Positions 32,106-33,329 of a stretch of DNA of 64,000 bases are shown one piece after another (the stretch's first letter is position 1; each line of letters opens with the position of its first letter). The position numbers and the translations under genes were made by a program. The DNA is taken from the IMG/VR virus record IMGVR_UViG_2541047857_000014. The stretch is one strand, 5' to 3'. The notes under the pieces were generated by a model. It saw only the letters and a program-made list of their open reading frames with translations. It was not told the origin of the DNA and did no database searches. The stretch is from a virus. Its lineage: Duplodnaviria > Heunggongvirae > Uroviricota > Caudoviricetes.

Positions 32106-33329
32106 ATGCGCAACATTATCGAATTAGAACAGATATCGGAAGAACTAAAAAAACATGAACTATTGCAACCCCCATTCATTGCCGAGGGAAAACTAATTTC
32201 TGACTTTTCTAAGAGAGTCGAGTGCTATTTAGAATTAATTGACTCCATTAGAAATAAATATCCTGACAACGAGATAATTAAACAAGTAAAGATTCGCACA
32301 AAATCAATAATATATTTATCTGATAAAATAATAGAAACTCTTAAGCTATTTTTAATAGGAAATGTTAAAGAAGCTTATAAAAAATTCGATTTGGCAATTA
32401 CCAAGTCATCAATGCATACTCATCTTTATAAGATGACTGTTCCTCTAACTAAATTATGCAACCCACACACCCCTTTATTTCGCGTAAGGAAAAGTGAGTG
32501 CATCCTAAAACAAAGAGAAGAATTATTTCATATACCATTTAAAAATAGACATTTAGTTAGCGCACAAAGATTTTCTGTATCCGGTCTTCCATGTTTATAT
32601 CTTGGAACATCAATATTTGTATGTTGGCAAGAAATGGGAAAACCTGACTTTGATAAACTTTACATATCTTCCTTCATATCCGATAAAGAAAATTCAAATA
32701 TAAGAATTTTAGATCTTGGGTACAATTTAACATCTGCACTTCGTACAAAACCGGGAGATCTTTGGTATTCATTCGAACAAGGTTCAGATGATGATTACGA
32801 TCTAAATAATGATAATTTCATGGATCAAATTAATGATAAAATTTCAAAGTTGATTGCATGGCCTTTAGTCCTTGCATGTAACTATACAAAAGATAATGAA
32901 AACGCAAGTTTTAATAAAGAATACATAATACCAAACCTATTAATGCAATGGATTAGTAGTGACAGAAACAAAAATATATCAGGGATATCGTATCGATCAA
33001 CAAAGATATTAAACCAAAAAGATAGCGATATTGGGATTAATGTAATTATCCCCCCAAAAATAGAAAACATAGTTGAAACCAATGATACCCACTGTCCTGT
33101 TTTAAAAAAAATATTTAGAGTTACAAACCCTGTTTCCTGGACTGTGTTTAGTACACTAGAAGCCACCCCCTATCTATACAAAAATAATTTTAATTTTTCG
33201 ACCTATAATCCCGCAAAAGGATGGATTGAAGACTTTGATGAATCCCTTGTTGAACATTATGAAAATACCACTTTTAGAAAAGTTGAACTCCTTATTCATC
33301 AAATGATGAAGTATGAATATTTAAAATAA
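32106..33329 (+). CDS. RES-domain protein (407 aa), cargo between int and att core; putative NAD-targeting toxin/defence effector
   Basis: AT-rich; segment QRFSVSGLPCLYLGTSIFVCWQE fits RES-domain R...Y.S...E pattern; start 4 nt after int stop. Confidence 0.6.
   Translation: MRNIIELEQISEELKKHELLQPPFIAEGKLISDFSKRVECYLELIDSIRNKYPDNEIIKQVKIRTKSIIYLSDKIIETLKLFLIGNVKEAYKKFDLAITKSSMHTHLYKMTVPLTKLCNPHTPLFRVRKSECILKQREELFHIPFKNRHLVSAQRFSVSGLPCLYLGTSIFVCWQEMGKPDFDKLYISSFISDKENSNIRILDLGYNLTSALRTKPGDLWYSFEQGSDDDYDLNNDNFMDQINDKISKLIAWPLVLACNYTKDNENASFNKEYIIPNLLMQWISSDRNKNISGISYRSTKILNQKDSDIGINVIIPPKIENIVETNDTHCPVLKKIFRVTNPVSWTVFSTLEATPYLYKNNFNFSTYNPAKGWIEDFDESLVEHYENTTFRKVELLIHQMMKYEYLK

Follow-up and report, generated by a model that had tools for sequence, protein, structure and literature searches.

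Which function could be served by a gene that lies in a prophage between the integrase gene (int) and the attachment (att) site, and whose product resembles one half of a two-gene toxin module? To our knowledge, every RES toxin described so far is one half of a RES-Xre pair, and these toxins have been studied mainly for persistence and cell killing. The question is raised by a gene at 32106..33329 on the plus strand of a 64,000 nt stretch of DNA (IMG/VR record IMGVR_UViG_2541047857_000014, Caudoviricetes; hereafter the window), which is identical to Escherichia coli S88. This open reading frame (ORF) encodes a 407-amino-acid (aa) long-form RES-fold protein, WP_001244285.1, that is assigned in PHROGs to phrog_7835, a family of unknown function (4.8e-180). 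We refer to them as the cargo gene and the cargo protein.

An original prediction made from the sequence had read the protein as a RES-domain toxin without an antitoxin. Taken as a whole, this interpretation is partly supported, in that the RES-like core and the lack of a partner stood, whereas the formal RES-domain match did not. The gene is best explained as a horizontally exchanged 'moron' that fills the int-att slot of ssrA-integrating 186/Fels-2-type prophages of the P2 family. For its function, a self-controlled anti-phage gene is the best explanation as a whole, to which we give a little more than an even chance.

Protein fold and active site

The core of the cargo protein very probably has a RES-type ADP-ribosyltransferase (ART) fold with an intact active-site constellation. 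The three-dimensional RES/ART fold was recovered in the predicted core, and the phosphorylase MbcT is the best structural match of the protein. Residue conservation was determined over 51 sequences at 24-49% identity. Invariant among these are R128, F141, H142, R155, S157, G160, P162, Y165, W174, E176 and E272, and R126, R148, S169, C173 and N312 are at least 90% conserved. The segment QRFSVSGLPCLYLGTSIFVCWQE at aa 154-176 had been proposed to fit the Arg/Tyr/Ser/Glu signature of RES toxins, which agrees with the invariance of R155, Y165 and E176 and the at least 90% conservation of S169.

Of the MbcT residues, R27, R47 and Y58 are indispensable and E69 plays a contributing role (PMC6436930), and the RES clade was described as an ART variant in which Y and N replace the usual S and E (PMC9503650). 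The segment KRWNSKGTEALYFSESESLCSLE of the RES toxin VPA0770 aligns gap-free to QRFSVSGLPCLYLGTSIFVCWQE, and the VPA0770 LYRL pairs with LFRV of the cargo protein. The hhalign block, used as register information and not as proof, places cargo aa 161-181 onto MbcT 54-74, with Y165 on Y58 and E176 on E69. For calibration, the MbcT-clade profile itself reaches other solved RES toxins only at E values of 1.6e-4 to 0.64, over the same block of ~40 aa. Based on the LYRL/LFRV pairing and a modelled strand at 124-129, R126 or R128 would be the equivalent of MbcT R27, and N312 on the modelled strand 311-315 would correspond to the RES-clade Asn (PMC9503650). The functional residues of RES toxins, i.e. 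the strand-1 Arg, the Arg of the RES motif (R47), the Tyr (Y58) and the Glu (E69), have their counterparts in R126/R128, R155, Y165 and E176. Judged from the alignments, the core appears to retain the NAD-site and phosphate-site residues of RES toxins, R126/R128, R155, Y165, E176 and N312 (NAD, nicotinamide adenine dinucleotide).

The protein is, as had been pointed out, much longer than typical RES toxins (407 aa versus about 150-190 aa). It begins with a hypervariable helical-bundle domain (aa 1-118; 32106..32459), a candidate sensor or regulatory domain. The first half of the RES/ART core (aa 119-205; 32460..32720) is delimited by invariant columns, the partial Pfam RES match, hhalign and the VPA0770 register; it contains the FRVRK strand (R126/R128), FHIPF (H142), R148, QRFS (R155), LPCLYLGTS (Y165, S169) and CWQE (E176). 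The core is then split by a hypervariable, indel-rich insert (aa 206-249; 32721..32852), recognized by column statistics and by the confidence of the predicted model (predicted local distance difference test, pLDDT). The insert has a median identity of 11% to the window protein and 26% gaps, none of its 44 columns is conserved, and pLDDT falls below 50 at aa 215-234. The second half of the core (aa 250-345; 32853..33140) holds WPLxxAC, the F..EYIIPNLLMQW helix (E272), the GIxYRST strand and the NVIIPP strand (N312). The variable C-terminal region (aa 346-407 plus stop codon; 33141..33329) has a median of 27% identity to the window protein and modelled helices at 377-383 and 389-400. All these parts are encoded on the plus strand.

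The main alternative concerns the chemistry of this active site. A ParT- or DarT-like transferase, specific for a host or phage protein or nucleic acid, would lead to exclusion or lysogenic conversion and no bulk loss of NAD+. ParT modifies Prs, and DarT modifies DNA. We regard such a transferase as unlikely, because the best structural match is a phosphorylase, because the region-3 position would be occupied by Asn (N312, by the mapping above) as in RES proteins and not by the transferase-typical catalytic Glu, and because the gene neighbourhood suggests no target.

Location at the prophage edge

The prophage is of the P2/186 type and inserted at the E. coli gene for transfer-messenger RNA (tmRNA), ssrA; the cargo gene lies at its right edge. 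The prophage-host junction is formed by the att core (33446..33490, 45 bp, plus strand), a duplication of the ssrA 3′ end. Homology to ssrA starts at window position 33446 in 5,426 of 5,426 complete E. coli genomes, and GGACGCGGGTTCAACTCCCGCCAGCTCCACCA, the exact 32-mer of the ssrA 3′ end, occurs in the window as a single copy at 33459-33490, with a chance expectation of 0 matches. ARAGORN and Rfam detected no full tmRNA gene in the window, which holds the 45-bp 3′ copy alone. In S88 the intact ssrA precedes window position 1 by ~600 bp; therefore, ssrA and the 45-bp repeat at 33446-33490 mark the two ends of the prophage. Hence, the cargo gene is situated inside the prophage at the int-att junction, as originally predicted. 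Both predicted distances proved accurate: the integrase stop codon TAA and the cargo ATG at 32106 are separated by the 4 bases GCAC, and from the cargo stop codon it is 116 nt to the att core (predicted, about 115 bp).

The cargo gene ends a rightward lysogenic string that starts with the 186/P2-type repressor gene cI (30447..31079, plus strand; Pfam Phage_CI_repr 1.7e-30 and Phage_CI_C 7.2e-31), annotated in S88 as phage repressor protein CI. It is followed by the tyrosine integrase gene (31082..32101, plus strand; Pfam Int_N 1.1e-28 and Phage_integrase 6.4e-26). The integrase gene is the left conserved flank of the cargo slot, and an att arm common to prophages with unrelated cargo (33331..33445) is the right one.

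Gene turnover between int and att

The slot, window 32084-33445, is a single-gene diversity locus (loci surveyed, L086-L093 and L104-L183). DNA homology between prophages ends at window 32079-32097 and restarts at 33326-33333, at the cargo stop codon, from where it runs through the att arm to 33490. This restart was observed in L087, L090, L092 and L093, all of which have other cargo. The GC content of the cargo gene is 0.29-0.33 (about 30%), compared to about 0.47 for the neighbouring phage genes. Among the IMG/VR loci found with the protein family, 76 of 80 have the order cI, int, RES-like gene, and across these 76 viral loci the integrase is 90-96% identical and the RES-like protein 38-70%. 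In a distant phage with an integrase 53% identical (L083, 3395-5932), the RES-like gene is located between cI and int.

The integrase type of the window is present in 198 of 5,426 E. coli genomes. There the slot is occupied by unrelated AT-rich genes (31-36% GC), encoding another RES-like allele, a ~505-aa family, a transmembrane (TM) protein family, a 222-aa protein or a dCTP deaminase. The latter is annotated as anti-phage (PADLOC dCTPase, 2.2e-146). A census sampled by integrase instead of cargo comprised 46 loci with an att core downstream. Twelve of them (26%) are empty, with the att core 152-185 bp after int. The RES-like family is the commonest occupant (14/46), followed by the TM family (12/46), a small-protein family (3/46), the dCTP deaminase (2/46) and a 503-aa family (1/46). 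Two further loci (L142 and L143) are filled, with about 1.2-1.3 kb from int to the att core and no ORF of at least 90 aa called; they may carry decayed or frameshifted cargo. One of the RES-like census loci has a second tandem gene, and stacked cargo was also seen in L035, in the order int, TM protein, RES-like gene. At least three of the occupying families are uncharacterized, namely the TM proteins (208-373 aa), a 207-222-aa family and a 503-510-aa family. The slot combines conserved flanks, gene turnover, an empty state and a known defence occupant, as expected for hotspot cargo.

Other hotspots are known in this phage family. In K139-like Vibrio phages the cI-int position, where L083 has its RES-like gene, was reported as a hotspot (Rousset et al., PMC9122126), and A/Q "old-tin" and Z/fun were published for P2 (PMC9122126; Vassallo preprint). 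We found no description of the int-att slot in the P2-hotspot papers searched. Like these hotspots (old/tin between A and Q; Z/fun; the K139-like cI-int position), the cargo slot is a short locus with AT-rich single-gene turnover and known defence genes (PMC9122126; Vassallo preprint). What sets it apart is its position: in ssrA-integrating 186/Fels-2-type phages it is bounded by int and the att arm.

Partner genes

In the known systems, a RES enzyme left free kills the cell. At the cargo locus, no adjacent Xre helix-turn-helix (HTH) antitoxin gene with an MbcA/ParS domain was found. The flanks are the integrase gene 4 nt upstream and 116 nt of att arm downstream. The absence of an adjacent Xre-type antitoxin, which had been noticed initially, was confirmed; no conserved small ORF was detected. 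The repressor CI has Phage_CI_C and no Xre/MbcA/ParS toxin-binding domain, its match to an Xre-like HTH being insignificant (E 0.22). There are no ToxI-type tandem repeats at the locus, and the antisense ORFs inside the cargo gene are not conserved between alleles. No consistent HTH neighbour was observed beside 8 distant relatives examined in their contigs, and in structure the N-terminal domain matched no antitoxin.

One small ORF was considered and rejected. It is a recurring 57-aa ORF with a TTG start (33299-33472, minus strand) that spans the conserved att arm and core at several related loci; because the att DNA itself is conserved, it is probably an artefact and not a gene.

A partner that escaped recognition (CI, Int, an unannotated RNA or the protein's own N-terminal domain) would make the cargo protein the toxin of an addiction module. 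All characterized RES toxins are neutralized by a partner (PMC6436930; PMC9503650), and the cargo gene always comes after cI-int, or directly after cI in L083. Moreover, the 442-aa homologue YopC of Bacillus phage SPbeta is preceded by YopB, a 75-aa Cro/C1-type HTH protein (HTH_26, 3.6e-17; L004:2348-4011). Of all contexts observed, only the yopB-yopC arrangement looks like a RES-Xre pair; some lineages may therefore have a partner. Against an addiction module stand the domain content of CI, the 8 distant contexts without an HTH neighbour, the lack of a conserved small ORF or repeat RNA, and the N-terminal domain without likeness to antitoxins. In addition, 26% of the related prophages have an empty slot and others have unrelated genes in it, so the phage has no need of the cargo gene. 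Altogether, we consider addiction quite improbable and return to the anti-phage reading.

Relatives and their neighbourhoods

An exhaustive search with hidden Markov models (HMMs) yielded 2,728 clusters at 50% identity with E<=1e-3 and 1,145 with E<=1e-30. A family of this size (2,728 clusters at E<=1e-3) indicates that the cargo ORF is a real gene. The 150 best hits listed are mostly proteins of 350-420 aa in which the N-terminal region is included. By tblastn (4e-34 to 3e-80), homologues were identified in YopC of SPbeta, gp33 of Escherichia phage Cartapus and ORFs of the Salmonella phages RE2010 and SopEPhi. These are true homologues, 25-42% identical to the cargo allele, and those in P2-family phages occupy the same int-adjacent slot.

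The sampled neighbourhoods of distant members are conflict-system neighbourhoods. One member (P0170, L096:3501-4616) lies directly upstream of the BREX operon BrxA/BrxB/BrxC and downstream of PDDEXK/REase-ARP and DUF4325 genes. Another adjoins insertion sequence (IS) elements and an nSTAND3-like protein, a third is near GmrSD and AAA fragments, and a fourth is found on a phage-like contig beside FokI-cleavage-domain and DUF4365 genes. The gene for P0147 (L103:3501-5336), a protein of 611 aa, comes directly after a pair of a Gabija-like OLD-TOPRIM ATPase and a UvrD-type helicase. The RES-like part of P0147 (aa 28-327) is joined to a restriction-endonuclease domain of the RE_LlaMI/MvaI_BcnI type.

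These contexts bear on a further alternative, a counter-defence or signalling enzyme that would destroy or modify NAD-derived immune messengers, or tune host NAD metabolism for the phage. Enzymes that act on ADP-ribose derivatives are common in phages (PMC9503650), and the Arg/His-rich pocket (R126, R128, H142, R148, R155) would suit phosphorylated nucleotides. However, the gene belongs to the lysogenic cI-int string and not to the early lytic genes, the slot is also used by a bona fide defence gene, and the chromosomal relatives lie within defence islands, not in phage lytic modules. Such a role has little probability. The frameshifted replication endonuclease gene of the prophage and the rarity of the exact allele (3 of 5,426 E. 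coli genomes) might suggest that the gene has lost its catalytic activity or is decaying and serves no function in S88 today. This is very improbable given the intact, full-length ORF, active-site-like residues invariant in more than 50 divergent sequences and a family that is the most frequent slot occupant.

Expression and proposed function

No terminator-like site was found between int and the cargo gene; the first is at 33618-33641, beyond att. Expression of the cargo gene in the lysogen is therefore plausible. In RNA sequencing (RNA-seq) data for the Cartapus lysogen LF82, int RNA follows cI RNA under all conditions, at a roughly 4-8-fold lower level; the RNA-seq table omits the RES-like orthologue. 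A promoter of its own was considered for the cargo gene and discarded (11 promoter-like matches, 10.9 in shuffled sequence).

A role in defence or exclusion overall appears somewhat more probable than all other roles together. In the mechanism that we propose, read-through from cI-int would give low-level transcription of the cargo gene in the lysogen. The variable regions, i.e. the N-terminal bundle, the insert and the tail, would keep the enzyme inactive until a cue from an infecting phage switches it on. Once active, the enzyme would use up NAD+; the likeliest route would be phosphorolysis, the reaction of MbcT and Res, and the other the transfer of ADP-ribose. The infected cell would stop growing, and the lysogen population and its prophage would be protected. 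Within this defence or exclusion reading, phosphorolysis of NAD+ specifically is a tentative assignment with about one chance in three, and target-directed ADP-ribosylation is unlikely. The position of the gene, the limits of the cassette, the fold, the conserved residues, the missing partner gene and the figures on slot and neighbourhood were observed directly. Enzymatic activity, autoinhibition, trigger, anti-phage phenotype and expression in the lysogen are all putative features of the cargo protein. A RES protein without a partner that is tolerated in lysogens, a conserved core with fast-evolving flanks, and a hotspot position together with relatives in defence islands fit a self-inhibited single-chain effector.

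Several observations weigh against this reading, beginning with the assignment to RES itself. The Pfam RES model (PF08808) matches aa 141-205 at profile positions 11-75 of 157 with 12.2 bits (E 0.19), below the gathering threshold of 23.2 bits. By Pfam's own criterion the cargo protein is not a PF08808 member, and the proposed RES domain holds in fold and key residues and fails in the HMM check. Relatives come closer, with 22.4 bits for YopC and an E value of 8.5e-6 for the best of the 51 relatives. No NCBIfam model matches the cargo protein, and no family of PADLOC-DB v2.0.0 does so at E<=1; as positive controls, PD-T4-3 in the same window (8.6e-137) and dCTPase in the same slot (2.2e-146) were matched. 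Foldseek against the PDB found no RES structure. When the PDB was searched by sequence and profile, the queries being the protein, profiles of 29 and 51 sequences, and YopC, no RES toxin was listed; all matches were to coiled-coil or designed helical proteins and fell in the N-terminal domain. The hhalign comparison with MbcT and the MbcT-clade profile covers 21-22 columns at a low probability of 6.5-7.9%, and the model has pLDDT <50 in the catalytic loop around R155. The nuclease fusion in P0147 makes a nucleic-acid-directed role, rather than NAD depletion, possible. Literature searches yielded no experimentally characterized family member and only mentions at the level of annotation. Finally, the replication endonuclease (gpA-like) gene of the S88 prophage is annotated as frameshifted (window ~24959-27399; S88 2823849-2826289). 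The prophage may therefore be defective, though the lysogeny module and cargo are intact, and selection on the S88 cargo copy may be relaxed.

Comparison with known systems

Besides their length (about 150-190 aa, NatT 250 aa, compared to 407 aa), the toxins of RES-Xre modules (MbcT/Rv1989c, Res of P. putida and Photorhabdus, VPA0770, NatT) differ from the cargo protein in several respects. The latter adds the 118-aa N-terminal bundle, the 44-aa insert in the core and a tail of ~60 aa, and it has the family-specific conserved elements FHIPF, R148, E272 and PDFDKLY. It falls below the Pfam RES threshold, and its gene is phage cargo without an Xre/MbcA antitoxin gene, not a two-gene toxin-antitoxin module. 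ParT of Sphingobium, a RES-domain ADP-ribosyltransferase acting on Prs, has 160 aa, the antitoxin ParS and protein ADP-ribosylation as its activity, compared to the 407-aa, partner-less cargo protein.

In its proposed logic the cargo protein resembles single-protein abortive-infection or NAD-depleting defences encoded by prophages, such as HepS on Gifsy-1, where one polypeptide is both toxic effector and sensor, to the benefit of the prophage carrier (PMC13043305). The SIR2-sensor protein DSR2 is described with the same one-polypeptide logic. The effector folds differ, being HEPN in HepS, SIR2 in DSR2 and RES/ART in the cargo protein. The variable flanks and conserved core of the cargo family fit such a combination of effector and sensor in a single protein.

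Cartapus gp33 is publicly labelled "putative RES protein", and YopC and some UniRef entries "RES domain-containing"; hence, the bare RES identification is not new. The long, antitoxin-less phage-cargo form, its status as the commonest occupant and the int-att hotspot itself appear to be undescribed. It is conceivable, although we hold it at somewhat less than an even chance, that the long-form RES proteins form one large, so far unrecognized family of immune effectors that act alone, regulate themselves, are directed at NAD and provide one-gene abortive infection without an Xre antitoxin, and that the int-att junction is a third P2-family defence hotspot, whose TM-protein, 207-222-aa and ~505-aa occupants are also new defence genes. 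If so, RES chemistry (NAD+ phosphorolysis or ADP-ribosylation) would become linked to phage defence, raising the mechanistic question of how a potentially lethal NAD-consuming enzyme is silenced without an antitoxin. With its sharp, conserved flanks the slot would lend itself to a search for new defence genes. In addition, the family marks a gap in coverage, as Pfam, NCBIfam and PADLOC all miss it.

Neighbouring genes

At the other end of the prophage, a gene for a BRCT-domain protein is located between ssrA and ogr (S88 2798408-2798890, just left of window position 1). Its Cartapus orthologue (L002:5467-5949, 'putative exonuclease') is the top-expressed Cartapus gene in LF82 lysogens, 15-fold over background, and because of this the BRCT-domain gene is likely another moron.

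A second island, which carries defence-type genes, adjoins the att core on its right side (window 33876-36256, extending to about 39200). It includes a gene for a DpnII/MboI-like PD-(D/E)XK protein (34070-34858; Pfam 9.5e-49, PADLOC Aga_Helical-REase 1e-26), the start of which is overlapped by a 65-aa ORF, and a gene for a PD-T4-3 GIY-YIG protein on the minus strand (35450-36256; 8.6e-137). A DinI-like pseudogene, a DUF262 protein and a recombinase fragment are also found in this island.
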